The notes: generated by a model not told the origin, from the letters alone. A stretch of DNA of 64,000 nt from an uncultured Ruminococcus sp. (GCA_947176415.1 CAMWQJ010000003.1:4131-68130); one strand, 5' to 3'. Counted from the stretch's first letter, positions 36,374 to 52,099 are shown. Made by a program: numbers and translations.

Positions 36374-36775
36374 AGGCACTCCTCCTTATTGTATTTATAT
36401 ACAGTTTCACTTTACGGCAGTGAAAGCCGATTTTCCCTGACGTATGACTGTCACTTTCTTCAACAGTCAACACAAATCATAATACATATACATTATACAA
36501 TAGAAGTCAGAAAAAATCAACACTTTCTGAAAAATTCGCACTATTAATTATACGAATTTTAAAATTTTCGGCAGAATCAACAAAATGTTATTGATTTTTT
36601 TGTCAGAAAATACCGTAAGAGTTTAAAAATATTCCCGATAATGACGGCGGTATATAATAAAAAAATTTATATAAAATCAAAAAATTATAAAATATCTTAT
36701 TTTACTCTTGCATTATCGGCTGATTTGTTGTATTATTATATGTGTATTACTAAAATGTCAGGGGGAGTTATTTAA

Positions 36776-37747
36776 ATGAAACTCGTTTCGGTTGTTGTTC
36801 CGTGCTACAATGAACAGGAAGTTCTGCCGATGTTCTATGATGAGATAACCAAAGTAACAGACAAGATGTCGGCTGATTATCCAGAACTTGAATTTGAATT
36901 TCTTTTCATAAACGACGGTTCAAAGGACAGAACACTGCAATTATTAAGAGAACTTGCCGACAGGGACAAGAGAGTAAGATATATATCTTTTTCCCGAAAT
37001 TTCGGTAAGGAATCAGGAATGTATGCAGGACTAAAAAACGCAAAGGGCGATTATGTCGTCGTAATGGACGCTGATTTACAGCACCCGCCGTCATTTCTTC
37101 CCGAAATGTACAGCTATGTAAAGGACGGAGAGTATGACTGTGCCACAACACGACGTGTAAACCGCAAGGGCGAATCAAAAGTCCGTTCATGGTTTGCCAT
37201 GCAGTTCTACAAAATAATGAACAAAATCTCACAGACGGAAATTGTCGACGGTGCACAGGATTTCAGATTCATGACAAGACAGATGGTTGACGCAATACTT
37301 GATATGTCAGAGTATAACAGATTTTCAAAGGGCATATTCAGCTGGGTAGGATTCAATGTCAGATATATTCCATATGAAAATGTAGAGCGACCAGCAGGCA
37401 CAACTTCATGGTCTTTCTGGGGACTCTTCAAATATTCCCTTGAGGGAATAATGGCTTTTTCAACTGCTCCGCTTGCTGTATCGTCGTTCCTCGGCATACT
37501 CAGCTGTATTATCTCTTTCATACTGATTATAATTACTGTAATCAAGACCCTTGCTTTCGGTGAAAGTGTAGACGGCTATCCTACAACTATATGTGTGATT
37601 TTCATGCTCAGCGGTCTGCAACTGTTCTGCACGGGTATTCTCGGACAGTATCTTTCAAAAACTTATCTCGAAACAAAAAAACGTCCTATCTACATTGCAA
37701 AGGAAACGGACGAGCTTTACAGAAACAGGAAAAAAGAAAAGTCCTGA
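36776..37747 (+). CDS. GT2 polyisoprenyl-phosphate glycosyltransferase (GtrB/CsbB-like)
   Basis: VVPCYNE, NDGSKD, SFSRNFGKE, MDADLQHPP, two C-terminal TMs, ETKKRPIYI. Confidence 0.92.
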   Translation: MKLVSVVVPCYNEQEVLPMFYDEITKVTDKMSADYPELEFEFLFINDGSKDRTLQLLRELADRDKRVRYISFSRNFGKESGMYAGLKNAKGDYVVVMDADLQHPPSFLPEMYSYVKDGEYDCATTRRVNRKGESKVRSWFAMQFYKIMNKISQTEIVDGAQDFRFMTRQMVDAILDMSEYNRFSKGIFSWVGFNVRYIPYENVERPAGTTSWSFWGLFKYSLEGIMAFSTAPLAVSSFLGILSCIISFILIIITVIKTLAFGESVDGYPTTICVIFMLSGLQLFCTGILGQYLSKTYLETKKRPIYIAKETDELYRNRKKEKS

Positions 37748-37775: not shown

Positions 37776-38849
37776 ATCAACAGAAGAACTATATTTATTG
37801 TATCTGCACTTTTGGTTGTCATAATTCTGCTCGCCATATCTATAACGGGATTCTATTCCGATACGTCGGTGATTACAGGAAATGACGGATTCCGTGCCGA
37901 TATGGTGAGCAATATAGATAAAGACAGTTCGGATAACGTTATTTTCAGGGACAATAACGGGCTTTTCGGAATAATCGACAGCACGGACAGAATTATAGTC
38001 GCTCCCGAATGGGAGGATTTGAAATTCACAAAAAACAATAGTCTGTGCATAGCAAAACAGCGTATAGACGGAAATCTTCTCATGGGCTGTATAGACTATG
38101 AGGGAAATATAACAGTGCCTTTTATATATCAGAATATAGAATATCATGAATATAACAGCTTTTCTTTCTACATTGCCGAGCCAGCCGACGATAATTCATG
38201 CGTGATTTATGATGAGAGATTTGTGCCGTATTTCAGACGTTCATGGGACAGTTATACCCTTGAGGACGATGTAATGATTTTCAGGACGGAAAACGGTACA
38301 TATAAATATCTGATAAACGACGACGGATTTCATCTGCGGTCTGCCGAGGTAATCGGAAAAAGTATGGACAGAAGCTATCTTATCAGCATAGGGAGCAGAA
38401 TACTGTTATCAAAGCTGAGTGTGCCTATGATTGAAAAAATAGCCGAGGACACGGGAAAATATATAGAATTTGCCTATACGGGAAATGACGATATACTTTC
38501 AGATATAACAACGGGTGGACGCTCGGGATTTATAAGGCTTTTTCCCGACGACCACAGTATATTGTCAAAGAAATTACTCAATATTTCCGAAATATATATG
38601 TACTCTGTGCGTTCTGACGATACTGTACCGCACTATGCCGTGTCTGTCACGGCAGAAACGGAGATAGAATATTCCGACGAAAAAACAGGACACAGCACCC
38701 TGAAAGACAAGTACACCGCCGTAATTGAGTTCAGCGGACGTTCCGAAAACGACCTGACAGCCGTTTCGGGAAGTTTTGAACAGGAAAAACCCGAATATCC
38801 TGTTATTGAAGATGTGACAGAAAACAGGACAGAAGAAAATCAGACATAA
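37776..38849 (+). CDS. Membrane-anchored hypothetical protein with WG-like repeats
   Basis: TM then GLFGIIDSTDRIIVAPEWE and GCIDYEGNITVPFIY repeats; frame is open from 37758, SD-spaced start looks like ATC 37776 (ORF track uses TTG 37812). Confidence 0.65.
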   Translation: MNRRTIFIVSALLVVIILLAISITGFYSDTSVITGNDGFRADMVSNIDKDSSDNVIFRDNNGLFGIIDSTDRIIVAPEWEDLKFTKNNSLCIAKQRIDGNLLMGCIDYEGNITVPFIYQNIEYHEYNSFSFYIAEPADDNSCVIYDERFVPYFRRSWDSYTLEDDVMIFRTENGTYKYLINDDGFHLRSAEVIGKSMDRSYLISIGSRILLSKLSVPMIEKIAEDTGKYIEFAYTGNDDILSDITTGGRSGFIRLFPDDHSILSKKLLNISEIYMYSVRSDDTVPHYAVSVTAETEIEYSDEKTGHSTLKDKYTAVIEFSGRSENDLTAVSGSFEQEKPEYPVIEDVTENRTEENQT

Positions 38850-38891
38850 TAAAAAAACCGCTTTATAATGCGGAGTAAGGAGTTAATAAAT

Positions 38892-39392
38892 ATGTCAAAA
38901 AAAGTTGCGGTTATAATGGGAAGCAACAGCGATTTTCCCGTTGTGAAGTCGGCAATTGCCGAACTCAAGAAATACAGCGTTGAATACGAGTGCCGTGTTA
39001 TGTCGGCACACAGAACACCCGAAGAGGCTTGCGGGTTTGCGAGAAATGCCAAGGAAAACGGATTCGGCGTTATCATATGTGCGGCAGGTATGGCGGCACA
39101 CCTCGCAGGAGTTATTGCAGGACACACAACCCTCCCCGTTATCGCCATTCCCATGAAGTCGGCAGTTTTAGAGGGCATGGACGCTCTCTTATCGTCCGTA
39201 ATGATGCCCCCCGGAGTTCCTGTTGCAACGGTCGGCATAAACGGTGCAAAGAATGCGGGTATACTTGCGGTACAGATGCTTGCAATCTCTGACGAAGAAC
39301 TCGCACAGAAGTTAGCAGACGAAAAAATCAAAATGGCTGAGGGCGTACGACAGAAAGATATTGAATTACAGGAGGAATTGAAAAATGTTTGA
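38892..39392 (+). CDS. purE: N5-CAIR mutase
   Basis: VIMGSNSD, SAHRTP, AGMAAHL, MPPGVPVATVG. Confidence 0.97.
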   Translation: MSKKVAVIMGSNSDFPVVKSAIAELKKYSVEYECRVMSAHRTPEEACGFARNAKENGFGVIICAAGMAAHLAGVIAGHTTLPVIAIPMKSAVLEGMDALLSSVMMPPGVPVATVGINGAKNAGILAVQMLAISDEELAQKLADEKIKMAEGVRQKDIELQEELKNV

Positions 39393-39582
39393 CAAAAAGG
39401 AAAAGAAATCAAAGCGTTTTGTTGTCAAAGAAGAACAGAATCTCGGTATATGTGCAATACAGATTATTGTTGATACTGTTACAGGTGTTAATTATTTAAA
39501 TACCGTCGGTACATCAATGGCAGGACTTACTCCCCTGCTTGACGACAAGGGAAATGTAATAATTGACAAAACAAATAAATAA
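39385..39582 (+). CDS. Small hypothetical protein (DUF6440-like)
   Basis: KRF...[13 protein letters not shown]....GLTPLLD..G pattern; GGAGG SD inside the purE 3' end. Confidence 0.65.
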
Positions 39583-39646
39583 AACTGCTTTACCTGTTCA
39601 CAAAGATGTGAACTTGTATACATATTTCACAGGAGGTTTTTTTAAA

Positions 39647-40366
39647 ATGGAAAACATTGTTAAACTGGAACAGCTTTACGAGGGTAAAGCAAAAAAGGTA
39701 TATGCAACAAACGACCCTGACATCGTAATTGTTGACTACAAGGACGACGCAACAGCTTTCAACGGCGAAAAAAAGGGTACAATCTCGGGCAAGGGAGTTG
39801 TCAACAACAGAATGACTAACTTCATGTTCAAGATGCTTGAAAAGGAGGGCGTTCCCACACATCTCGTTGAAGAAATCAGCGACCGTGAAACTATTGTAAA
39901 GAAAGTTTCAATCGTTCCGCTTGAGGTTATTGTAAGAAACGTTGCAGCAGGTTCATTCTCAAAGAGAATGGGCGTTGAAGAGGGCAGACAGCTTCTTACT
40001 CCTATTCTTGAGTTCAGCTATAAGAACGACGACCTCGGCGACCCTTTTATAAATGACTACTATGCTCTCGCTCTCGGTCTCGCAACAAAGGAAGAACTCG
40101 ACACAATCGCAGAATATGCGTTCAAGGTAAACGCATTCATGCTTGACTTCTTTAAAGGTCTTAATATCGACCTTATTGATTTCAAGATAGAGTTTGGCAA
40201 GACTTCCGACGGAACTATAATTCTTGCCGACGAAATCTCGCCCGATACCTGTCGTTTCTGGGATAGCACAACTCACGAAAAACTTGATAAAGACCGTTTC
40301 CGTCGTGATATGGGCGGTGTTGAAGAAGCATATCAGGAAATCATGAAAAGACTGATGGGAGAATAA
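39647..40366 (+). CDS. purC: SAICAR synthetase
   Basis: [49 protein letters not shown]. Confidence 0.97.
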
Positions 40367-40370
40367 TTCT

Positions 40371-41795
40371 ATGGGCGGATTTTTTGGTGCAGTTTCAAAA
40401 AACGACTGCGTGACGGACGTATTTTTCGGAACAGACTACCATTCACATTTAGGCACTCGCCGTGGAGGCATGACATCTTATTCCGAAGAACTCGGTTTCC
40501 AGCGTAATATCCACAGCATCGAAAACTCACCTTTCAGAACTAAATTTGAAGATGATGTTGTCAAAATGCGTGGCAAACTCTGTATAGGAAGTATAAGCGA
40601 TACAGACCCACAGCCTATCCTTGTACGTTCAAAACTCGGTCTCTATGCCGTCTGTTCGGTCGGAATAATCAGAAACGCAGATACACTTGTGAATGAACTT
40701 CTTGAAAACGGCTGTGCAAACTTCGAGACAATGAGTAGCGGAAACATAAACTCAGGCGGTCTTATCGGTGCATTAATCGCACAGAAAGACTCTTTTGTGG
40801 AGGGAATACGCTATGCACAGGAAAAAATCGAAGGCACTATGTCGCTGATTATCCTGACAAAAGATTCAATCATTGCTTCAAGGGACAAATATGGCAGACT
40901 TCCTATTATCATAGGAAAAAGAAGTGACGGCTTCTGTCTTTCAACGGAGTCATTCGCATTTCAGAAACTCGGCTATAATACTTATAAGGAACTCACTGCG
41001 GGCGAAATAGTAAAGATAGATTCTGACAAGTGCGAAACACTCAGCGAAGGCGACCCCTCGAAAATGAAGATATGCACTTTTCTGTGGACTTATTACGGAT
41101 ATCCGACGGCAGTATATGAGGGTGTCAACGTTGAGGCAATGCGTACACGCAACGGTGAGATAATGGCGGAAAATGACATAAAGGCAGGTAAGCTCCCCGA
41201 GGTTGACTATGTTTGTGGTATACCTGATTCGGGAACTCCGCACGCTATCGGTTATGCGAACAGGAGCGGTATACCTTTTGCAAGACCTTTTATCAAGTAT
41301 ACTCCAACATGGCCGAGAAGTTTTATGCCAACAAATCAAAGTATGCGTAATCAGGTTGCAAAAATGAAACTCATTCCCGTACATGAACTTATAGAGGGAA
41401 AAAGACTTCTCTTTGTCGATGACAGCATAGTGCGTGGTACGCAGATGAGAGAGACGGTTGAATTTCTTTATGAAAACGGTGCAAAGGAAGTTCATATGCG
41501 TTCAGCCTGTCCGCCGATAATGTACGGCTGTAAATATCTCAACTTCTCACGCAGTCATTCCGAACTTGAACTTATCGCAAGGCAGATTATAGACGAGTTC
41601 GAGGGTGCGGAGGGCGTAAAGTACCTTGCGGAATACAGCGATACAAATACCGAAAGGGGCAGGCGTATGCGTGACGAGATATGCAGAAGACTCAAGCTGA
41701 CTTCCCTTGAATTTCAGTCGCTCGAAGGCAAGATTAATGCGGTAGGTCTGCCACAGTGCAATCTCTGCACTTACTGCTGGAGCGGTGAAGAATAA
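40371..41795 (+). CDS. purF: Amidophosphoribosyltransferase (variant without N-terminal Cys)
   Basis: [34 protein letters not shown]; N-terminus is MGGFFG. Confidence 0.9.
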
Positions 41796-41875
41796 TAAAA
41801 TCATTCCGACAGACAGAACCTGTTTTCATATTTGCGGAGGCAGGTTCTGCAAAATATAAGGAGGTTTTTAAACCA

Positions 41876-42913
41876 ATGAATAACAGTTTTTCAAAGAGCT
41901 ACGAAAAGGCGGGCGTGGACGTTACGGCAGGTTACAAGGCTGTTGAACTCATGAAGAAGCATATAGCAAGGACAATGACGGCGGGGGCAATATCAGGAAT
42001 CGGCGGATTCGGCGGTCTTTTTGAGCTTGATATGACAGGTATAAAAAAGCCCGTACTTGTTTCGGGAACGGACGGCGTCGGAACTAAAATAAAAATAGCT
42101 TTTATCATGGACAAACACGATACAGTCGGAATAGACTGCGTGGCTATGTGTGTGAATGACATAATCTGTTGCGGAGCAAAACCGCAGTTTTTCCTTGACT
42201 ATATCGCCTGCGGAAAGAATTATCCCGAAAAGATAGCCGAGATTGTTTCAGGCGTTGCTGAAGGCTGTGTGCAGGCAGAGTGTTCATTGATAGGCGGAGA
42301 AACAGCAGAACACCCCGGACTTATGCCCCTTGATGAGTACGATTTAGCAGGATTTTCAGTAGGCGTTGTTGACAAGGATAAAATCCTCCGCCCAGAAACG
42401 CAGAAGGCAGGCGACGTACTTATTGCGATAAAGTCAAGCGGTGTGCATTCAAACGGCTTTTCACTCGTGAGAAAAGTTTTTGACGTAAACGAAAAAAATC
42501 TTGCCGTACATTTTGACGACCTCGGCAAAACTCTTGGCGAGTGTCTGCTTACCCCGACAAGAATTTATGTAAAGGCAATAACCAGACTTATCGACAGTGT
42601 TGAAGTAAAAGCCATATCCCATATAACAGGAGGCGGATTCTATGAGAATATCCCACGTGTGCTTCCGCAGGGTATTTCCGCAAAGATAGAGAGAAACGCT
42701 GTACAGGTACTTCCGATTTTCGACTTAATCAAACGTTCAGGCGATATTCCCGAAAGAGATATGTTCAATACTTTCAATATGGGTGTAGGCATGATGGTTT
42801 CAGTTGACAAAAACGACGCTGACAAGGCGGTTGAAGTTCTCAAATCCGCTGGCGAAGAGGCTTATATTCTCGGAGAACTCGTTGAATCCGAAGAGGGCGT
42901 TATCATCTGCTGA
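41876..42913 (+). CDS. purM: AIR synthetase
   Basis: [51 protein letters not shown]. Confidence 0.97.
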
Positions 42914-43051
42914 TAAAATTTGCAGAGACGATATATATACAAATCAAAGCGAATAAAATAAAATATATCTGCGGTAGTGCTTATGCGGTATTCTGATTTT
43001 TAATAAGTACCGCATACGCCACCGTCAGTCGTAATATAAGGAGTGATTATA

Positions 43052-43585
43052 ATGAAATGTCCATATTGTGGCGGAGAAACCACAGCCAGAAAATGCGAAT
43101 ACTGCAACTCAGATTTAAGCGAATATTATGTAAACAACGGTACATTAGGCGGTACTGTTTCAGGAATAATAAGCAATATGGGACAAAGTATTGTCAACAG
43201 CATAGGCGGTAACAACAATCCGCCGTCAAATACTCCGAACATAAACACAGGCATAAGTCAGAATACAACAAACGTTACACAGAATATAATAGTCGGACAG
43301 TCGGTTGATTTTCAGAACAACAATATGAACGCAAATATGATGCAGATGAATGCTAATGTAAATATACCCGTCGAGTCACGGAAAAGCAAGGTCCTTGCTA
43401 TTATCCTGTGCATAATAGGATTTTTCGGTTTCGGCGGTCTCCACAGATTATACACGGGTAAATACATCTCAGGCATTATATGGCTTTTTACATACGGTCT
43501 TTTTGGTATAGGAACAGTTGTAGACCTTATTCTTCTTCTGACGGGAAAATTTTACGACAAAGACGACAAGCCATTGTTGAGATAG
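43052..43585 (+). CDS. Zn-ribbon + TM2 domain protein
   Basis: MKCPYCGG...KCEYC; Asn/Gln-rich linker; KSKVLAIILC..GFFGFGGLHRLYTGK...GIIWLFT.GLFGIG...D TM2 motif. Confidence 0.85.
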   Translation: MKCPYCGGETTARKCEYCNSDLSEYYVNNGTLGGTVSGIISNMGQSIVNSIGGNNNPPSNTPNINTGISQNTTNVTQNIIVGQSVDFQNNNMNANMMQMNANVNIPVESRKSKVLAIILCIIGFFGFGGLHRLYTGKYISGIIWLFTYGLFGIGTVVDLILLLTGKFYDKDDKPLLR

Positions 43586-43598
43586 CGGAGGGGTAAAT

Positions 43599-44222
43599 AT
43601 GAAAAATATAGTTGTGCTTGTTTCGGGCGGTGGAACTAATCTTCAGGCACTGATAGATGCCGAAAAATCCGGAAATATAAAGGGTGGAAAAATAACCTGT
43701 GTTATTTCCTCAAACCCTGAAGCATATGCACTTGAAAGAGCAAAGAATAATAACATTCCAACAATGGTTATACCACGGAAGAAATATTCCGACAGTATTG
43801 CATACAGCCATGCAATACTTGACGAACTCAACAATCTGAAAGCAGATTTGATTGTGCTGGCAGGTTTCATGACGATTCTTGACGAATGCGTTACAAAAGC
43901 TTATCCATATAAAATCATAAACGTTCACCCCGCACTTATTCCGTCATTCTGCGGTGAGGGATTCTATGGACTCAAAGTCCACGAAAAAGCCCTTGAATAC
44001 GGTGTAAAAATATCAGGTGCAACGATACATTTCGTCAACGAAAAGGCAGACGCAGGTGCAATAATATTACAGGGAACTGTAAACGTAGAAAACAATGACA
44101 CACCCGAAATTTTACAACGTCGCATTATGGAAAACGTCGAGTGGAAATTACTACCCGAAGCCGTATCGCTGTTCTGTCAGGACAGAATCGAAATTATCAA
44201 TGGAAAGGCTTATATAAAATGA
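43599..44222 (+). CDS. purN: Phosphoribosylglycinamide formyltransferase
   Basis: VSGGGTNLQAL, LAGFM, INVHPALIPSF, GATIHFV. Confidence 0.96.
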   Translation: MKNIVVLVSGGGTNLQALIDAEKSGNIKGGKITCVISSNPEAYALERAKNNNIPTMVIPRKKYSDSIAYSHAILDELNNLKADLIVLAGFMTILDECVTKAYPYKIINVHPALIPSFCGEGFYGLKVHEKALEYGVKISGATIHFVNEKADAGAIILQGTVNVENNDTPEILQRRIMENVEWKLLPEAVSLFCQDRIEIINGKAYIK

Positions 44223-44710
44223 TTACAGACATCAGAAAAACAGAAATAGGCATTGAGGGAAAATTATACTCAGAAGTATTCAATACTGAAATTGATGTCC
44301 ATATTGACGAGGAATGCAGTATTGAATATGCACAGAAATGTGCCGAACATTTCAACAGTTTAAACAGTGAACTTGTTGAAACTATTTGCAGAGGTGCAAA
44401 AGCTTATTGTCTTGACTTCATGGAGATTGCAGGCGGTGACTGGGACGAGGAGCTGACAATTCCCGTAACTGCTGAAACTCCGCCACTTGAAATGCTGAAA
44501 TGTTTCAAGCCGACTGTTTTTATAGTCGAAAAACCCGAAGACAAAAACAAAATAGGCTATCAGCTTGAATGTTGTTGCGACTGGGAAATTGAACATGGTA
44601 TGGAAATTGATATACTTGACAACAAAGTTGTGTATCTCAGTTCATTCAATGATTATTCGCCATGGTATGAATACGACACCGACGAATACAATTATATAAA
44701 TCAGATATAA
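44219..44710 (+). CDS. Acidic hypothetical protein (DUF6985-like)
   Basis: ATG overlaps the purN stop (ATGA); LECCCDWEIEHGMEI...NKVVYL motif. Confidence 0.65.
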   Translation: MITDIRKTEIGIEGKLYSEVFNTEIDVHIDEECSIEYAQKCAEHFNSLNSELVETICRGAKAYCLDFMEIAGGDWDEELTIPVTAETPPLEMLKCFKPTVFIVEKPEDKNKIGYQLECCCDWEIEHGMEIDILDNKVVYLSSFNDYSPWYEYDTDEYNYINQI

Positions 44711-44724
44711 AGGAGAAGTTTATC

Positions 44725-45438
44725 ATGGAAAAACTTGATATTGCAAAAGAACTCAGTTCAAACGCATACCCTGGAAGAGGTATAATAATAGGAAGATGTG
44801 AGTGCGGTAAGTACGCCGTTACTGCATACTTCATCATGGGCAGAAGTGAAAACAGTCGTAACCGTGTTTTTGTCGAGGAGGGCAGAGGCATAAGAACACA
44901 GGCTTTTGACCCGTCCAAACTTACAGACCCACATCTTATTATATATGCACCCGTGCGTGTTCTTGGCAACAAGCTCATCGTTACAAACGGCGACCAGACA
45001 GATACTATATATGAACTCATGGACAAGCAGTATACATTTGAACAGTCACTCCGCACAAGAGAATTTGAAGACGATGCTCCGAACTACACGCCGAGAATTT
45101 CTGGCATACTTCACTTTGAGAACGGCGGTTTCAACTATGCAATGTCTATTCTCAAGAGTGCAGACGGAAACCCTGATTCGTGCCTGAGACATACTTTCAC
45201 ATACAGCAATCCCGTTGCAGGCGAGGGACATTTTATTCATACCTATATGGGCGATGGAAATCCGCTTCCGAGTTTCACGGGCGAGCCGAAAAAAGTCGCT
45301 ATAAAGGGCGGTATAGACGAGTTTACGGAAACTATCTGGAATAACCTTAACGAAGATAACAAGGTATCACTGTTTGTGCGATATGTAAATCTTGAGGACG
45401 GTTCTGAGGAGACAAGAATAGTCAACAAAAACAAGTGA
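44725..45438 (+). CDS. Stand-alone IMP cyclohydrolase (PurO-like)
   Basis: YPGRGIIIG, AYFIMGRSENSRNR, HLIIY, TNGDQTD, EDDAPNYTPRISG. Confidence 0.88.
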   Translation: MEKLDIAKELSSNAYPGRGIIIGRCECGKYAVTAYFIMGRSENSRNRVFVEEGRGIRTQAFDPSKLTDPHLIIYAPVRVLGNKLIVTNGDQTDTIYELMDKQYTFEQSLRTREFEDDAPNYTPRISGILHFENGGFNYAMSILKSADGNPDSCLRHTFTYSNPVAGEGHFIHTYMGDGNPLPSFTGEPKKVAIKGGIDEFTETIWNNLNEDNKVSLFVRYVNLEDGSEETRIVNKNK

Positions 45439-46226
45439 AAAAGCTGATTTTCATACTGCTTTGTGCTGTATGCCTTGTATCATGCAGTGATACTTCTGTA
45501 AGTGAGGAGATTTCTTCTTCTGAAGAAGTCTCTGTCACTGAAACTGTCACAACGACGGTATCTGAAAATAAGAATGAAACAGCTGATATAGAAATACCAA
45601 AAAATGCAGAGTACAAGCAGACTGCAACAATTTACAACAGTCACGGATTTTTCGAAAAAATAGTAAATATTTTTGATGAAAATGATAATGTGCTTATAAA
45701 TCTTGTGTATATTTCCGAAAATGGAGAACCGCCGACAAGCTGGACAATTTATACTTATGATACAGACAACAGGCTTATTAAAGAGGATTTTTATTGTAAC
45801 AACAGATTACTTAATTATACTGAATACGAATACGACGAAAACGGTATCATAATTTCAGATACAGAATATTATAACATTAATAATGATGAAGTTCAGGAAA
45901 TAAGAACAGAGTATATTTATAATGATAATGGCATATTATCCGCAAAACAGACATATCAGCAGAACGGAAATAAATCATATAGTTATCATTATGAATATGA
46001 CGAGCAGAACAGATTGATAAAAGAGAATTTTAATGGCAGAATAAATTCCTGTTGTTCTTACTCATATGACGAAAACGGCAATATTTCAGAAAAAACAGAC
46101 AACGGTGAATATGGTATCACAGTAGCATATTATACTTATGATGACAATAACCGTTTAATAAGTGCAGAAGAATATAACGACGATGAACTTATTCACACTT
46201 ATGAATACGAATACGAAAAATTATGA
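45435..46226 (+). CDS. Lipoprotein with YD/RHS-like beta-hairpin repeats
   Basis: Lipobox LVS-C; repeats YTYDTDNRLIKE, YEYDENG, YEYDEQNRLIKE, YSYDENGN, YTYDDNNRL. Confidence 0.75.
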   Translation: MKKLIFILLCAVCLVSCSDTSVSEEISSSEEVSVTETVTTTVSENKNETADIEIPKNAEYKQTATIYNSHGFFEKIVNIFDENDNVLINLVYISENGEPPTSWTIYTYDTDNRLIKEDFYCNNRLLNYTEYEYDENGIIISDTEYYNINNDEVQEIRTEYIYNDNGILSAKQTYQQNGNKSYSYHYEYDEQNRLIKENFNGRINSCCSYSYDENGNISEKTDNGEYGITVAYYTYDDNNRLISAEEYNDDELIHTYEYEYEKL

Positions 46227-46324
46227 TTGTTTCTTTTGATTTGAACGAGACTTTATTTGTGAATCCTGAAAAAGTTTCGGCGGAAAACAAACTCAATTTT
46301 TCGCCGGACTTCCGCAACGGATAG
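46223..46324 (+). pseudogene. HAD-gene 5' remnant 1 (33 codons)
   Basis: MIVSFDLNETLFVNPEKVSAENKLNFSPDFRNG*; aligns with ITVSFDLDETLFINPEKVSAEKSLKFPLD of 47448..47942. Confidence 0.8.
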
Positions 46325-46350
46325 CAACAATATAAAGGAGACGACTACAT

Positions 46351-46809
46351 ATGGCTGAAATTTTAAAATGCCCTAATTGCAATGCACCAATTCACATAAC
46401 TGAAAATATGAATACAGCAAAATGTGAATATTGTGATACCGAAATTATCCTTAACGAATACAGACCATATTTCGAAAACACTATAACAAAACATGAAATA
46501 AATTATTCGAAACTCAGAAAAAAATGGAATAAATCAATAATAACAACTGATATTATTCAGATAGCAATATCATTTTCATTTGTTATTTTAATGAACTCGC
46601 ATTCAGATATCCTGAACGGTATTGGTATATTGGTACTTTTTGTATCAGCGGTTTACTCTGTGGCACTGCCCGTACATCTGGCACACAAAAGACCCGTAAA
46701 TCCGAACGCTAAAAATCCGTCAAAATTCTCCACAGGACTTATGCTGTATGGTCTTTTCCTTATATCATTCGCTGTTACAGCATTTATCACCATTCCCGCT
46801 ACTATATGA
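46351..46809 (+). CDS. Zn-ribbon membrane protein, paralog 1
   Basis: CPNC...CEYC N-terminus, KKW motif, three hydrophobic segments. Confidence 0.8.
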   Translation: MAEILKCPNCNAPIHITENMNTAKCEYCDTEIILNEYRPYFENTITKHEINYSKLRKKWNKSIITTDIIQIAISFSFVILMNSHSDILNGIGILVLFVSAVYSVALPVHLAHKRPVNPNAKNPSKFSTGLMLYGLFLISFAVTAFITIPATI

Positions 46810-46907
46810 TTTTTTCATTCAGTCGTGACAAAACGCTTTTTATAAATCCCGAAAAAGTTTCGGCTGAAAACAAACTCAATTTTCCGCCGGACTTCTGCAA
46901 CGGATAG
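46806..46907 (+). pseudogene. HAD-gene 5' remnant 2 (33 codons)
   Basis: MIFSFSRDKTLFINPEKVSAENKLNFPPDFCNG*; DNA nearly identical to the HAD gene over aaacgctttttataaatcccgaaaaagtttcggctgaaaa. Confidence 0.8.
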
Positions 46908-46933
46908 CAACAATATAAAGGAGATGACATATT

Positions 46934-47443
46934 ATGACTGAAATTTTAAGATGTCCGAACTGCAATGCACAGATTCATGTAGTTTCAGGCAGAAACATTC
47001 TGAAATGCGAATACTGCGATACAGAAGTAATTATAAATAATAATATTCAGAACTTTTCCTCACAGACAAACGGCTTTCCGCAACAGATAAATGGATTTCC
47101 TCAACAGATGAATAGATTCCTAAATCAATATGTCCATACGAGAAATTATGCGGAAGAGATGAAAAAATGGAAAAAATCATTTCACAGGCGTCTCATAATA
47201 CAAGCTATGCTTACGGCTTTTTTCGCAATACTAATGGAAGAGGATTTTGCAGATATCGGTGCAATTGTATTTTTGTTTGCCGTTGTCTACTCTTTAGTTA
47301 TGACGTTTTATCTTATAAAGAACAAACCTCTTTCACCACTGCCACAGGACAATAACAAGTTTCTTGACTTCATGAAGATTTATCCACTATTTGCAGGAAC
47401 ATTCTGGGGTGGTATGATACTTATGGGAATTATCCTTTACTAA
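46934..47443 (+). CDS. Zn-ribbon membrane protein, paralog 2
   Basis: CPNC...CEYC, YAEEMKKWKK, three hydrophobic segments. Confidence 0.8.
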   Translation: MTEILRCPNCNAQIHVVSGRNILKCEYCDTEVIINNNIQNFSSQTNGFPQQINGFPQQMNRFLNQYVHTRNYAEEMKKWKKSFHRRLIIQAMLTAFFAILMEEDFADIGAIVFLFAVVYSLVMTFYLIKNKPLSPLPQDNNKFLDFMKIYPLFAGTFWGGMILMGIILY

Positions 47444-47447
47444 ATCC

Positions 47448-47942
47448 GTGAAACTCAAACAATATATAACGGTTTCTTTCGATTTGGACGAAACGCTTTT
47501 TATAAATCCCGAAAAAGTTTCGGCTGAAAAATCACTGAAATTTCCGCTTGACAGGATTTACAGGGACAGACTCAGAAAAGGTACTCCCGAACTCCTGCAA
47601 TGGATAAACCGCAATAATATAAATCTTTGGATTTATACAACGTCATGCCGTTCAGAAAGGTATATAAAAAATATTTTCAGACATTACGGTGTTAAAATTG
47701 ACAATATCATAAACGGAAAACGTCATGCGGAAGAAGTTCAGAAAAATAACACTGAAATATTGCCGTCAAAATATCCCTCAAAGTATCACATAGACCTGCA
47801 CGTTGACGACGAAATTTCAGTTTATCTGAACGGCATTGCATATGGTTTTCGTGTGTATCTCCTGACAGAAAACGATACAGACTGGACGGATAATATCAAA
47901 AATGAAATAATCCGCATAAGGAGAAACTTACATGAAAAATAA
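47448..47942 (+). CDS. HAD-family hydrolase
   Basis: SFDLDETLF (DxD), WIYTTS, LHVDDE; GTG start with weak SD. Confidence 0.8.
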   Translation: MKLKQYITVSFDLDETLFINPEKVSAEKSLKFPLDRIYRDRLRKGTPELLQWINRNNINLWIYTTSCRSERYIKNIFRHYGVKIDNIINGKRHAEEVQKNNTEILPSKYPSKYHIDLHVDDEISVYLNGIAYGFRVYLLTENDTDWTDNIKNEIIRIRRNLHEK

Positions 47943-48044
47943 TAAAAAAATCAAAGAAAAGATTTCTGAATCCGAACTGAATAATATTGAAATTCCGCTG
48001 GACTTCTGCAACGGATAGCAACAATATAAAGGAGATGACATATT

Positions 48045-48596
48045 ATGGCTGAAATTTTAAAATGTCCTAACTGCAATGCACAGATTCATGTAGTTTCGGG
48101 CAGAAACGTTCTGAAATGCGAATACTGCGATACAGAAGTAATTATAGACAACAACATTCAGGTAACTTCCGCACCGTCAAATAATAATGTAAATTCTCAA
48201 AATCATCTCTGTGAGGGAGATTTGTTTCGTAAAGTAAATTATGTAAATCCTGAAGACTATCCCGAAGAGATGAAAAAATGGAAGAAAAAATGTTATAAAA
48301 CAATGATAGTTCAGGCTGTACTTTCAGTACTTTCAGTACTTTCAGCATTTATCATCAATACATATGAAGCAGGTTTAGTAGAAGGAACTATTACATTAAT
48401 TATGATTTTTGCTCCACTTCTTTACGGTACATTTGCATCATTACTTCTTTCAAATAAAAAACCTTGTTTACCAGATGTGCAGATAACAGATATACGGAAA
48501 TACACCGCTTGTAACAGCAGAAATAATCCGATATTTTTGTGTGGTGCCTTTGTTACTATGATAATTATGCTTATTATTCCTATCTTGGCTGAATAA
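48045..48596 (+). CDS. Zn-ribbon membrane protein, paralog 3
   Basis: CPNC...CEYC, YPEEMKKWKK, three hydrophobic segments. Confidence 0.8.
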   Translation: MAEILKCPNCNAQIHVVSGRNVLKCEYCDTEVIIDNNIQVTSAPSNNNVNSQNHLCEGDLFRKVNYVNPEDYPEEMKKWKKKCYKTMIVQAVLSVLSVLSAFIINTYEAGLVEGTITLIMIFAPLLYGTFASLLLSNKKPCLPDVQITDIRKYTACNSRNNPIFLCGAFVTMIIMLIIPILAE

Positions 48597-48634
48597 TCAA
48601 TAAAAAAATTAAAAATATAAGGAGGACATTAATC

Positions 48635-49816
48635 ATGTCAAACGAAATGCAGTTAAAATACGGCTGTAATCCCAATCAGAAGCCATCAAGGGTTTATATG
48701 GCGGACGGCTCGGAACTTCCTATAGAAGTTCTTTGCGGTAAACCTGGTTATATAAACCTCCTCGACGCTCTCAACGGCTGGCAATTGGTAAAGGAGTTGA
48801 AGACAGCCACAGGTGTTTGTGCGGCAACTTCTTTCAAGCACGTTTCTCCTGCTGGTGCAGCAATCGGCAGACCTCTTTCCGATGATTTGAAGAAAATCTA
48901 CTGGGTTGATGACCTTGGCGAACTCTCTCCGCTCGCCTGTGCATACGCAAGGGCAAGAGGTGCGGACAGAATGTCATCTTACGGCGACTTTATCGCACTT
49001 TCCGACAAAGTTGATGTATGCACAGCAAAGATGATTCAGCGTGAAGTTTCGGACGGCGTTATTGCCCCTGATTACGACGAAGAAGCACTTGAAATTCTCA
49101 AGTCCAAGAGAAAAGGCACTTACTGCATTCTCAAAATAGACGAAAATTACAAGCCTGCTCCGATTGAGACAAAACAGGTTTACGGCGTATCTTTTGAACA
49201 GGGCAGAAACGAACTTGAAATTAACAGGGAACTTCTTGCAAACGTAGTTACAGAAAACAAGGACATTCCTGCCGACAAGCTCGACGACCTTATGATTTCA
49301 CTTATAACACTCAAATACACACAGTCAAATTCCGTCTGCTATGTAAAGGACGGACAGGCTATCGGCATCGGTGCAGGACAGCAGTCAAGAATCCACTGCA
49401 CACGCCTTGCTGGACAGAAAGCTGATAACTGGTGGCTGAGACAGTCCCCTAAGGTTATGGGACTTGATTTTGTTGACGGTATCCGCCGTGCAGACCGTGA
49501 CAACGCTATTGACGTTTATATCGGCGACGAATACGAAGACGTTCTCCGTGACGGCGAGTGGCAGAAAATTTTCAAGACAAAACCCGAAGTTTTCACAGCC
49601 GAAGAAAAAAAATCATGGCTTGCAAAGAATACAGGCGTTTGCTTAGGTTCTGACGCATTCTTCCCATTCGGTGACAATATCGAACGTGCCAAGAAGTCAG
49701 GCGTTGAGTATATCGCTGAACCTGGTGGCTCTATCCGTGACGACAATGTTATTGAGACCTGCAACAAGTACAATATCGCTATGGCGTTCACAGGAATAAG
49801 ACTTTTCCACCACTAA
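48635..49816 (+). CDS. purH: AICAR transformylase (PurH lacking the IMP cyclohydrolase domain)
   Basis: LKYGCNPNQ, GYINLLDALN, SFKHVSPAG, KYTQSNS, GAGQQSRIHC, SDAFFPF, GIRLFHH; 393 aa. Confidence 0.92.
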   Translation: MSNEMQLKYGCNPNQKPSRVYMADGSELPIEVLCGKPGYINLLDALNGWQLVKELKTATGVCAATSFKHVSPAGAAIGRPLSDDLKKIYWVDDLGELSPLACAYARARGADRMSSYGDFIALSDKVDVCTAKMIQREVSDGVIAPDYDEEALEILKSKRKGTYCILKIDENYKPAPIETKQVYGVSFEQGRNELEINRELLANVVTENKDIPADKLDDLMISLITLKYTQSNSVCYVKDGQAIGIGAGQQSRIHCTRLAGQKADNWWLRQSPKVMGLDFVDGIRRADRDNAIDVYIGDEYEDVLRDGEWQKIFKTKPEVFTAEEKKSWLAKNTGVCLGSDAFFPFGDNIERAKKSGVEYIAEPGGSIRDDNVIETCNKYNIAMAFTGIRLFHH

Positions 49817-49819
49817 TCC

Positions 49820-50134
49820 ATGAAAACGGAAAAAATAAAAAAATCTAAAGGAAGAACTGTACTGAAAATTATCATTGCAGTTCTCCTGATATGGATTTTG
49901 ATTGTTTTAATAGATACTGTACGTTTTTTTACTTCTGACAAGCCGATTTCACCGCTTATATGTATTGAAAGTAATGGATGTGGCTGTTTTGAATGGCGTG
50001 AAAAAGTAGGCATAGGATATTTATTTGAATACAACTATAACAGTATTGAATCTTATGATGCTAAGAAACCCGACCGTGCTGTATATAAATTCTATCTTAT
50101 CGATGAGGACAAAATGCAATATGAAAGAAAATAA
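49820..50134 (+). CDS. Small membrane-anchored hypothetical protein
   Basis: Basic N-terminus plus TM (IIIAVLLIWILIVLI), GCGC motif; fills the purH-purD gap; no obvious SD. Confidence 0.55.
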   Translation: MKTEKIKKSKGRTVLKIIIAVLLIWILIVLIDTVRFFTSDKPISPLICIESNGCGCFEWREKVGIGYLFEYNYNSIESYDAKKPDRAVYKFYLIDEDKMQYERK

Positions 50135-50147
50135 TGAGGTGATAAAA

Positions 50148-51434
50148 ATGAAGAATGTTTTAGTAGTAGGCGGTGGCGGACGTGAACACGCCATTATTAT
50201 GAAACTCGCCGAAAGTAAACACGTAGACAAACTTTACTGCACCCCTGGGAATGCAGGTATTTCAAAGTACGCTGAATGTTTCAATGTTTCCGCAACAGAC
50301 ATTGACGGCGTTGTTGCACTTGCAAAGGAAATAAAGCCCGATATGGTAGTAGTAGCACCTGACGACCCGCTTGTAATGGGAATGGTTGACGCTTTACAGG
50401 CTGAAGGTTTCATGACTTTCGGACCAAAGGCAAACGCCGCAATTATTGAGGGTTCCAAAGTGTTTTCTAAGGAACTTATGAAGAAATACAATATTCCTAC
50501 AGCTTTCTATGAAGTTTTCACAGAAAGTGAAAAGGCTATTGCGTACCTTAAAAAGCAGAACAGCTACCCCGCTGTTATCAAGGCAGACGGTCTTGCACTC
50601 GGCAAAGGTGTTATAATTGCCCAGAACGAAGAAGAAGCCGTGCAGGCTGTACATGAAATGATAGACAATCTAAAATTCGGAAAGAGTTCAGCAAGGATTG
50701 TTATTGAAGAATTTCTCACAGGTCCTGAAGTGTCTGTACTTTCGTTTACGGACGGAAAAACAATTGTACCTATGATTTCGTCCATGGACCATAAGCGTGC
50801 ATTGGACGGCGACAAGGGACTTAATACAGGCGGAATGGGTACGCTCTCCCCTAATCCCTACTATACGGAAGAAGTCGCAAAAGAGTGTATGGAGAAGATT
50901 TTCATTCCGACTATGAACGCCATGAACGACGAGGGAAGAACTTTTGAAGGCTGTCTCTATTTTGGACTTATGCTTACACCAAAGGGTGCAAAGGTTATTG
51001 AGTATAACTGCCGTTTCGGAGACCCTGAAACACAGGTTGTACTGCCAATGCTTGATGCCGATTTGTATGAAATTTTTGAGGCTGTATATAATCACGAGCT
51101 TGACAAAGTTGATATAAAGTGGCATGACGGAAGCTGTGCGTGTGTTGTAATGGCAAGCGGTGGCTATCCTGAAAGTTATCCGAAAGGCATTGAAATGAAC
51201 GGTTTCGACGAAAAAGGACAGGTCGAGGGCTGTTTTGTATACCACGCAGGCACTAAACTTTCGGAGGACGGAAAATTTCTCACCAACGGCGGACGTGTTA
51301 TCGGAGTTACGGCAAAGGGCGAAACTTTACAGAAAGCTCTTGACAACGCATATGGCGGAGTTTCAAAAATCCATTTTGACAATGCACACTACAGAAAAGA
51401 TATCGGACAAAGAGCCCTGAAAGCACTTGACTGA
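50148..51434 (+). CDS. purD: Phosphoribosylamine-glycine ligase
   Basis: VGGGGREHA, EGSKVFSK, KADGLALGKGV, NTGGMG, EYNCRFGDPETQ; ATG 50148 with GAGGTG SD. Confidence 0.97.
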   Translation: MKNVLVVGGGGREHAIIMKLAESKHVDKLYCTPGNAGISKYAECFNVSATDIDGVVALAKEIKPDMVVVAPDDPLVMGMVDALQAEGFMTFGPKANAAIIEGSKVFSKELMKKYNIPTAFYEVFTESEKAIAYLKKQNSYPAVIKADGLALGKGVIIAQNEEEAVQAVHEMIDNLKFGKSSARIVIEEFLTGPEVSVLSFTDGKTIVPMISSMDHKRALDGDKGLNTGGMGTLSPNPYYTEEVAKECMEKIFIPTMNAMNDEGRTFEGCLYFGLMLTPKGAKVIEYNCRFGDPETQVVLPMLDADLYEIFEAVYNHELDKVDIKWHDGSCACVVMASGGYPESYPKGIEMNGFDEKGQVEGCFVYHAGTKLSEDGKFLTNGGRVIGVTAKGETLQKALDNAYGGVSKIHFDNAHYRKDIGQRALKALD

Positions 51435-52063
51435 TGGAAGAAACACATAAAAAACTCGGAAAAGGTCTTACTCTCGGACTTGTCGGAAATTCTCTTTTTG
51501 TTGCATTCAGCGTAGTATGCTATATCTACTATCTTGTATATAAGCCTAACAATGCTTTTTCAAAGTTTCTTGAAATAACTGCCTATACGCTGGAATTTTC
51601 GGGGTTTGTATCGCTTATTGTCTCGGATATACTTATAAGCAGAACTGCACGCATGAGAGACTGGCTTAAAACAGCCTTTTCGGTCTATATAGTGGCGGAA
51701 GCTGTCATGATGATTCTTGAATTAAATTCATACCGTCTTGATTTCTATAAACCCTATTCGCTTGCCCTCGCAATAATTCATTCTGTATTTTCGGCGGTGG
51801 TATGCTTTTCGTTCCTGACTCTCGACCCCGACAAAAAGCAATTTGAAGTTATAGTTATAATCTGCATTGGAATAATTCTCGGCGGTATGATGGGAAATGT
51901 AATAGGCATTAGAGTTTATTTCAGTATTTTTACAAACAATATTTCTTTTGTGGTACTTTTCGGAGCAATAAAATTTCTTCTTAAACGTGAAGTAATCGAA
52001 ATAGACTGTTACGGAGACAAGGCGACTGTTACGGAATACAAAAGCACTTTTTTTGAAGAATAA
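51434..52063 (+). CDS. Multi-pass membrane hypothetical protein
   Basis: About six hydrophobic segments; ATG overlaps the purD stop. Confidence 0.7.
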   Translation: MEETHKKLGKGLTLGLVGNSLFVAFSVVCYIYYLVYKPNNAFSKFLEITAYTLEFSGFVSLIVSDILISRTARMRDWLKTAFSVYIVAEAVMMILELNSYRLDFYKPYSLALAIIHSVFSAVVCFSFLTLDPDKKQFEVIVIICIGIILGGMMGNVIGIRVYFSIFTNNISFVVLFGAIKFLLKREVIEIDCYGDKATVTEYKSTFFEE

Positions 52064-52071
52064 ATTACCAT

Positions 52072-52099
52072 GGGCGGAATATTTTCATTCCGCCTTTTT
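52072..52099 (+). terminator. Terminator ending the pur operon
   Basis: ggcggaat / attccgcc stem followed by a T5 run. Confidence 0.8.

Follow-up and report, generated by a model that had tools for sequence, protein, structure and literature searches.

Passenger genes at the internal junctions of the de novo purine operon in Ruminococcus

Introduction

Operons are usually read as functional units, and annotation by 'guilt by association' relies on that reading. Here we describe a de novo purine operon in which non-purine genes lie between the genes of the pathway. It is located in a 64,000-nucleotide (nt) stretch of DNA from an uncultured Ruminococcus sp. (GCA_947176415.1, CAMWQJ010000003.1:4131-68130), referred to below as the window. 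The operon runs from 38892 to 52063 in the order purE-purC-purF'-purM-purN-purO-purH-purD-mTM, where purF' is an atypical purF-like gene and mTM encodes a protein with multiple transmembrane (TM) segments. The non-purine genes, which we call passengers, occupy five of the seven junctions between pur genes. We conclude, with a probability of about 0.7, that these five internal junctions are old, heritable slots in which passengers turn over, and that the arrangement is a trait of the whole genus.

The closest described pattern is the addition of lineage-restricted genes to existing operons. ORFans join native operons and use native promoters; in Escherichia coli and Bacillus subtilis, insertions inside pre-existing operons are much rarer than additions at the ends, and the pace of evolution differs greatly between operons (Price, Arkin & Alm 2006, 'The Life-Cycle of Operons', PMC1480536). 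The purine locus shares with this pattern the co-directional placement of lineage-restricted genes beside native genes, here genes that are absent from compact outgroup operons and come without terminators. It differs in that internal junctions are the main sites, with up to six filled junctions and 8.8 kb per operon. It also differs in that the slots appear to be heritable and family-specific throughout the genus, and in that several housekeeping operons are involved. We therefore view the locus as an extreme, internal, multi-operon and genus-wide version of the ORFan-native pattern.

Three other kinds of gene array invite comparison. Integron arrays hold promoter-less, co-oriented cassettes, each a single open reading frame (ORF), behind an upstream promoter, and their content varies between relatives. 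The passengers are likewise co-oriented single-ORF units of variable content, but they lie between essential genes at several separate sites, and their families are site-specific and mostly vertical. No recombinase, integrase or transposase domain was found in the 21 ORFs of 36.7-52.1 kb (flanks further out were not scanned). A repeat search found no recurrent attC-like inverted repeats at passenger boundaries; the only junction that recurs, a remnant of a HAD gene joined to the leader of a Zn-ribbon gene, arose from duplication. In horizontal-transfer hotspots, or plasticity regions, as here, conserved core genes flank a variable, AT-richer set of genes. In contrast, the slots described here are intra-operonic, 0.3-3 kb long, strictly co-oriented and without mobility genes, and they have a vertical signal and in-situ duplication; neither flanking direct repeats nor an RNA gene was found in the array. 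Lastly, the orphan immunity or polyimmunity arrays of polymorphic toxin systems consist of small, fast-diverging, patchy genes in tandem paralog sets, whereas most passengers here are membrane proteins or lipoproteins. Searches of Pfam, NCBIfam and PADLOC assigned none of the window passengers to an immunity, toxin or defence family above cut-off. A sequence search of the PDB gave no match for the passenger families DUF6985 and DUF6440, and an AlphaFold model of DUF6985 (predicted local distance difference test, pLDDT, 82) had no PDB fold match at E ≤ 0.001. Our literature search turned up no paper about these DUFs or about operon interleaving in Ruminococcus.

Results

The window belongs to the Ruminococcus flavefaciens group. 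For comparison we used 80 PurO-anchored loci with 10-kb flanks, in which window proteins were located by tblastn and gap ORFs were extracted; the other-genus set comprised 25 loci, 20 of them from family-level genomes. In all 16 loci of the genus in which the whole purE-purD stretch is present, the order GT2-WG-purE-C-F-M-N-O-H-D-mTM is kept, GT2 and WG being a glycosyltransferase and a WG-repeat gene upstream of purE. Many other genera share the order of the pur genes. These 16 loci contain 3.2-8.8 kb of non-pur DNA in three to six junctions, compared to 0.13-3.7 kb in zero to three junctions in the 25 other-genus loci. Four loci from other genera (L024, L025, L082 and L090) have compact purE-purD arrays with a total spacer of 127-294 bp, and therefore the passengers were not part of the ancestral operon. 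Within the genus, passenger presence is patchy even where pur proteins are 94% identical. The purC-purF (6-33 nt) and purD-mTM junctions are free of passengers in every locus. mTM itself is fixed after purD in the genus (47-77% identity in congeners) and also occurs in three loci from elsewhere (L025, L085 and L096). It is the only cargo gene found to be fixed at one position with host-like composition, the pattern that would speak against capture of foreign genes.

Each slot has its own families. The 221 gap ORFs were clustered, and all 23 families with at least two members (23/23) are each restricted to one junction; 78 of the ORFs are singletons. Slot families are common to up to 15 species. 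The purE-purC slot holds a HAD_2 hydrolase (F5, 10 loci) and DUF6440. DUF3592-like TM proteins (F0) and a secreted protein of 280-330 amino acids (aa; F2) are found at purM-purN, and a PF06541 multi-TM protein (F1) and DUF6985 (F10) at purN-purO. The purO-purH slot is home to YD lipoproteins (F3; 11 loci, this junction always), Zn-ribbon membrane proteins (F4) and a small HAD protein (F6, 6 loci). At purH-purD there are at least five families plus singletons. A few other genera also have homologs of F5, F0 and F6 in their pur loci (F6 in L085), for the most part at the matching junctions, which suggests that some slots predate the genus. Among passenger ORFs of at least 100 aa, 144 of 152 are on the pur strand, and the other eight are antisense shadows of family members on the + strand.

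Passenger divergence follows that of the host genes in most families. Pairwise identities of passengers and pur proteins are correlated for F0, F1, F2, F4, F5 and F6 (Spearman 0.33-0.84, from pairs that are not independent). Identity is 33-75% for passengers and approximately 88-90% for pur proteins. Between the window and one close relative (L002), nonsynonymous divergence (dN) is 0.02-0.08 for pur genes and 0.10-0.59 for passengers, with ratios to synonymous divergence (ω) of 0.10-0.66 for the latter, which are rough values, dS being saturated (>1). We conclude that the rate of passenger evolution exceeds that of pur genes several-fold to approximately 25-fold, and that purifying selection on passengers is relaxed but real. 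The passenger families of the window have no paralogs elsewhere in the 1.94-Mb assembly, save one weak DUF6985 match on contig C1. In the closest relatives, the alignment of the DUF6985 homologs (L002, 9491-9904; L001, 418-831) stops at about residue 137, and the C-terminal ~25 residues are lacking; these short homologs may represent passenger decay.

The largest passenger block of the window grew in place. Ahead of each of the first two of its three Zn-ribbon genes (Zn1 and Zn2) lies a remnant of the 5' end of the HAD gene, at 46220-46309 (+; repeat D2, 77%; tblastn, 57% over 35 aa; alignment) and 46803-46892 (+; repeat, tblastn and alignment). A third joint with the same core and leader lies ahead of the last gene (Zn3), at 47993-48044, after the intact HAD gene. 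At TTCCGCYKGAC, each 90-nt remnant runs into a conserved leader, approximately 45 nt long, which contains a ribosome-binding site and is followed by the Zn gene. The repetition of these units of HAD remnant, leader and Zn gene therefore indicates tandem duplication at a short repeat, not three separate captures. The HAD remnants may still be translated as short ORFs.

Interleaving is not confined to purine genes. The his operon of this genome (C37:5527-11424, - strand) has the order hisH, hisA, four foreign ORFs, hisF, two foreign ORFs, hisI, hisE. The foreign ORFs between hisA and hisF are a 162-aa ORF, an R2K ATP-grasp protein, a 158-aa ORF and DUF7832, and those between hisF and hisI are a 131-aa TM protein and a GNAT protein. 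The spacing from the hisA domain to the hisF domain exceeds 250 bp in 29 of 34 congeners (range 50-4609 bp) versus two of 43 other genera of the family, in which it is 35-99 bp in 40 (the exceptions being 172, 281 and 559 bp). In the F-type ATP synthase operon, an orphan HsdS, the specificity subunit of type I restriction-modification systems (PF01420, 374 aa), lies between atpG and atpD (C2:19008-20132, + strand) with gaps of 6 and 11 nt. Within the genus, the atpA-atpD interval has 250-1230 bp extra in 14 of 36 congeners, and the V-type A-B spacing is always 855-858 bp. The interleaved his and atp operons therefore make this a trait of genome organisation in the genus, not of purine genes. 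The trp operon (trpC-F-B-A) is compact in this genome.

Two side observations concern the same operons. In the F-type ATP synthase operon, atpH and atpA form a single fused ORF of 675 aa. Three small genes of unknown function adjoin the compact trp operon (C82:714-2622, + strand); they might be immunity-like (SUKH/SMI1), an impression from their first residues only.

In the window, pur and non-purine genes between 38892 and 52063 are all on the + strand, as judged from the ORF listing and Pfam (gene calls are plain ORFs; families come from a Pfam scan of 36.7-52.1 kb). purE (38892-39392; PF00731, AIRC, 201 bits) has its true start at the ATG at 38892, downstream of an AGGAG ribosome-binding site, and its end overlaps by 8 nt the gene for a 65-aa DUF6440 passenger (39385-39582; PF20037, 63.7 bits). 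purC (39647-40366; PF01259, 308 bits), the purF-like paralog 4 nt 3' of it (40371-41795; weak GATase_7 and PRTase matches) and, after a further 80 nt, purM (41876-42913; PF00586 and PF02769) follow one another with empty junctions. A passenger encoding a membrane protein with a Zn-ribbon and a TM2 domain (43052-43585; PF05154; two hydrophobic segments) separates purM from purN (43599-44222; PF00551). The DUF6985 passenger (44219-44710; PF22481), the start of which overlaps the purN stop (ATGA), precedes purO, the gene for a PurO-type inosine monophosphate (IMP) cyclohydrolase (44725-45438; PF07826, 236.6 bits).

Next comes the largest block. It starts with a YD/RHS-repeat lipoprotein gene (45435-46226; PF05593 and TIGR01643) with a GTG start that overlaps the purO stop. 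Zn1 (46351-46809) and Zn3 (48045-48596) encode Zn-ribbon paralogs with three TM segments. Zn2 (46934-47443) encodes a Zn-ribbon membrane paralog; used as query, it matches Zn3 at 45% identity. The HAD gene, 4 nt after Zn2, encodes a small HAD-like phosphatase (47448-47942) with a DxDxT motif and with NIF and HAD-IIIC matches below the Pfam/NCBIfam cut-off. Beyond the block, purH (48635-49816; PF01808, profile positions 75-311) encodes only the domain for 5-aminoimidazole-4-carboxamide ribonucleotide (AICAR) formyltransferase (AICARFT). A 104-aa single-TM passenger with no Pfam match (49820-50134) begins 3 nt after purH, without a ribosome-binding site, and is followed by purD (50148-51434; GARS_N, GARS_A and GARS_C domains). 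The start of mTM (51434-52063; 209 aa; no Pfam match) overlaps the purD stop. Thus seven pur genes (E, C, M, N, O, H and D) pass the Pfam cut-offs, and the purF-like gene is atypical.

The original prediction held that almost every gap between pur genes contains co-oriented, tightly coupled cargo. That is so for five of the seven junctions and for the 3' end, with gaps of -8 to +138 nt throughout the array, but purC-purF and purF-purM are empty. The genes that it listed are borne out; purO had been missed, and the order in the largest block is YD, Zn1, Zn2, HAD, Zn3.

The steps of the pathway encoded here have peculiarities of their own. The purF-like protein begins MGGFFG and is without the N-terminal catalytic Cys of N-terminal nucleophile (Ntn) amidotransferases. 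A canonical purF is found elsewhere in the genome (C9:34153-35565; 60% identity to the canonical type of outgroup loci), and the canonical and atypical genes adjoin each other within the operon of some relatives. The last two purine steps are encoded by separate genes, one for a PurO-type IMP cyclohydrolase and one for a PurH limited to AICARFT; here 3.2 kb of passengers lie between them.

The spacing of the genes is tight. Six passengers begin -8 to +4 nt from the upstream stop codon, and the distance from the preceding passenger is 13-14 nt for purN, purO and purD and 38 nt for purH. An intrinsic terminator at 52072-52095 (+ strand; 9-bp stem with five GC pairs, then a T-run) closes the unit. 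As predicted for this position, it is the first clear one and the best + strand terminator within 36-53 kb. From purE to 52072 there is no convincing + strand terminator, the remaining matches being weaker and within coding sequence. The isolate R. flavefaciens 007c (L015) has the same layout, and its first strong terminator comes only after mTM. Because of the spacing and the missing terminators, expression by riding on the operon is the most economical reading. We infer from the sequence that passengers are expressed by operon read-through, often with translational coupling, and that many of them lack promoters of their own, there being no room for one in the spacing. Downstream pur genes would then be expressible only through the passengers.

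The transcript may extend further upstream. The GT2 glycosyltransferase gene (36776-37747, + strand; PF00535, 127 bits) is syntenic and co-oriented with the pur operon across the genus. The WG-repeat gene (37812-38849, + strand; PF14903; one N-terminal hydrophobic segment; 37-63% identity in congeners) comes next on this strand, and the 42 nt between its end and purE contain no terminator. The pur array is probably transcribed together with these two genes. A promoter-like TTGCAT-17-TATTAT at 36709-36737 (+ strand), read from the sequence of an AT-rich divergent region upstream of GT2 (guanine-plus-cytosine (GC) content 0.28), is a candidate for the start of the whole unit, which may thus begin at about 36.7 kb. 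An Rfam scan of the window found no riboswitch or leader family and no RNA gene. PurBox-like matches do not exceed chance expectation (71 versus 62 expected), and in 19 congeners no such match is conserved ahead of purE. The WG-repeat gene itself contains a PurBox-like palindrome, ATATTTCCGAAATAT (38581-38595), roughly 300 nt ahead of purE. Congeners do not share it, and the resemblance is probably fortuitous.

Passengers are also distinct in composition. GC content is 0.29-0.39 across 45.4-48.6 kb versus 0.42-0.47 in the pur genes, in agreement with what had been noted by eye. Ranked among the ORFs of the genome (GC 0.418), passengers fall between the 2nd and 17th percentiles and pur genes between the 48th and 99th, with purN at the 22nd. 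Across loci, however, slot GC follows core GC over a range of 0.39-0.57 and is usually up to ~0.1 lower. At least one hydrophobic segment is present in eight of 11 window passengers, and across loci in 74% of passengers versus 33% of genome ORFs of at most 350 aa (odds ratio 5.9; the ORFs are not independent). The description of the cargo as membrane or surface associated is thus upheld; its immunity-like label is unverified, no immunity domain having been matched.

Discussion

We propose the following history for the purine operon. The slots would have been filled by the early radiation of the genus at the latest, and each would then have kept its own families, mostly small membrane, lipoprotein or secreted proteins. 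Passengers would have been inherited largely vertically while being duplicated in place, decaying, being lost and sometimes being replaced. Replacement is most evident at purH-purD and in the YD family. Selection against polarity on essential downstream genes would allow only co-oriented, terminator-free insertions to persist, and such a filter may be the reason why co-orientation is perfect and terminators are lacking.

Several points weigh against the view of old, heritable slots. Passengers are consistently AT-richer than the core, and a foreign origin could fit this. The diversity at purH-purD is more readily explained by replacement or exchange than by pure vertical descent, and the YD family (F3) is uncorrelated with pur divergence (rho 0.05, ~32% identity). 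Weak promoter-like matches occur at 38841-38869 and 42936-42964, and promoters inside coding sequence may drive passengers. The relatives are mostly metagenome-assembled genomes with plain ORFs as gene calls, and the non-independent pairs and saturated dS mentioned above bear on the vertical signal. Finally, the slot account gives no cause for the accumulation of passengers in this genus.

The alternative that survives best, although we consider it unlikely, is the one originally proposed, in which the pur operon serves as a landing strip: foreign, promoter-less genes would have been captured recently and repeatedly by horizontal transfer, with random cargo in each species. The absence of passengers from compact outgroup operons, their position in the low tail of genome GC, the location of DUF6440 elsewhere in other genera, the many singletons and the at least five families at purH-purD are all in its favour. 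Furthermore, the window departs from L001, L002 and L013 in what every slot contains, even though their pur proteins are 91-94% identical. However, families are strictly slot-specific in up to 15 species, divergence tracks the host for most of them, and their GC tracks host GC. The array is without a mobility gene or a flanking repeat, and a paralog elsewhere is limited to one weak match. The largest block of the window grew through local duplication, and the trait is not specific to pur. We therefore retain from the proposal of acquired, promoter-less genes that the passengers are co-oriented, terminator-free, patchy and absent from compact sister operons, and set aside recent random capture.

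Another alternative, which we find improbable and somewhat more so than recent capture, is that some or all passengers are partners in purine metabolism, for example HAD nucleotidases or membrane transporters of purines or their precursors, and that the operon is a true, enlarged functional unit. HAD hydrolases do recur: F5 at purE-purC in 10 loci, with homologs in the pur loci of two other genera (at the same junction in L086), and small HAD proteins at purO-purH in six loci and in L085. Likewise, mTM is found after purD in the whole genus as well as in L025, L085 and L096. All families but mTM are patchy, however, and passengers evolve fast. Nothing is known that would link the YD lipoproteins, Zn-ribbon membrane proteins, TM2 or DUF6985 to nucleotides, and unrelated passengers (HsdS, R2K ATP-grasp, GNAT and DUF7832) occur in the atp and his operons. 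Outside this genus, DUF6440 is present in 36 genera of the family; wherever the pur operon was located as well, the two lie on separate contigs, and because of this lack of linkage we do not regard DUF6440 as a pathway partner.

It is very doubtful that the array is a close packing of independent units in which internal promoters drive passengers and downstream pur genes: although promoter-like matches are more numerous than in shuffled sequence (63 versus 46 ± 5.7), some of them in gaps (42936-42964 and 38841-38869), and the four larger gaps (102-138 nt) could hold promoters, six passengers nearly abut the gene upstream, purN, purO, purD and purH begin at most 38 nt after a passenger, co-orientation is 100%, and no convincing + strand terminator precedes 52072 in the window or the end of mTM in L015.

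The reading of heritable slots can be extended beyond purine genes. More tentatively, and with less than even confidence, we suggest that the junctions of many housekeeping operons (pur, his and atp) form a distributed, heritable accessory genome, in which fixed slots carry fast-evolving envelope and passenger genes that are kept, duplicated and swapped on essential transcripts. If true, this would imply a genus-specific cause that has not yet been described. Candidates are a mechanism of insertion or recombination so far unrecognised, an unusual tolerance of long polycistrons, and selection that ties competition or surface genes to transcripts that are always on. Because the genus differs so sharply from its sister genera, as in the hisA-hisF spacing (29/34 versus 2/43), the cause can be tested.

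A genus of important rumen fibre degraders thus breaks the rule that an operon is a functional unit, with foreign coding DNA inside a core biosynthetic operon amounting to up to two thirds of the pathway DNA. If passengers and pur genes are co-transcribed, context-based prediction of function would be misleading in these genomes, and the expression of essential genes would run through kilobases of fast-evolving membrane-protein genes. Part of the accessory genome would then be hidden in 'core' synteny blocks, which pangenome methods assume not to vary.

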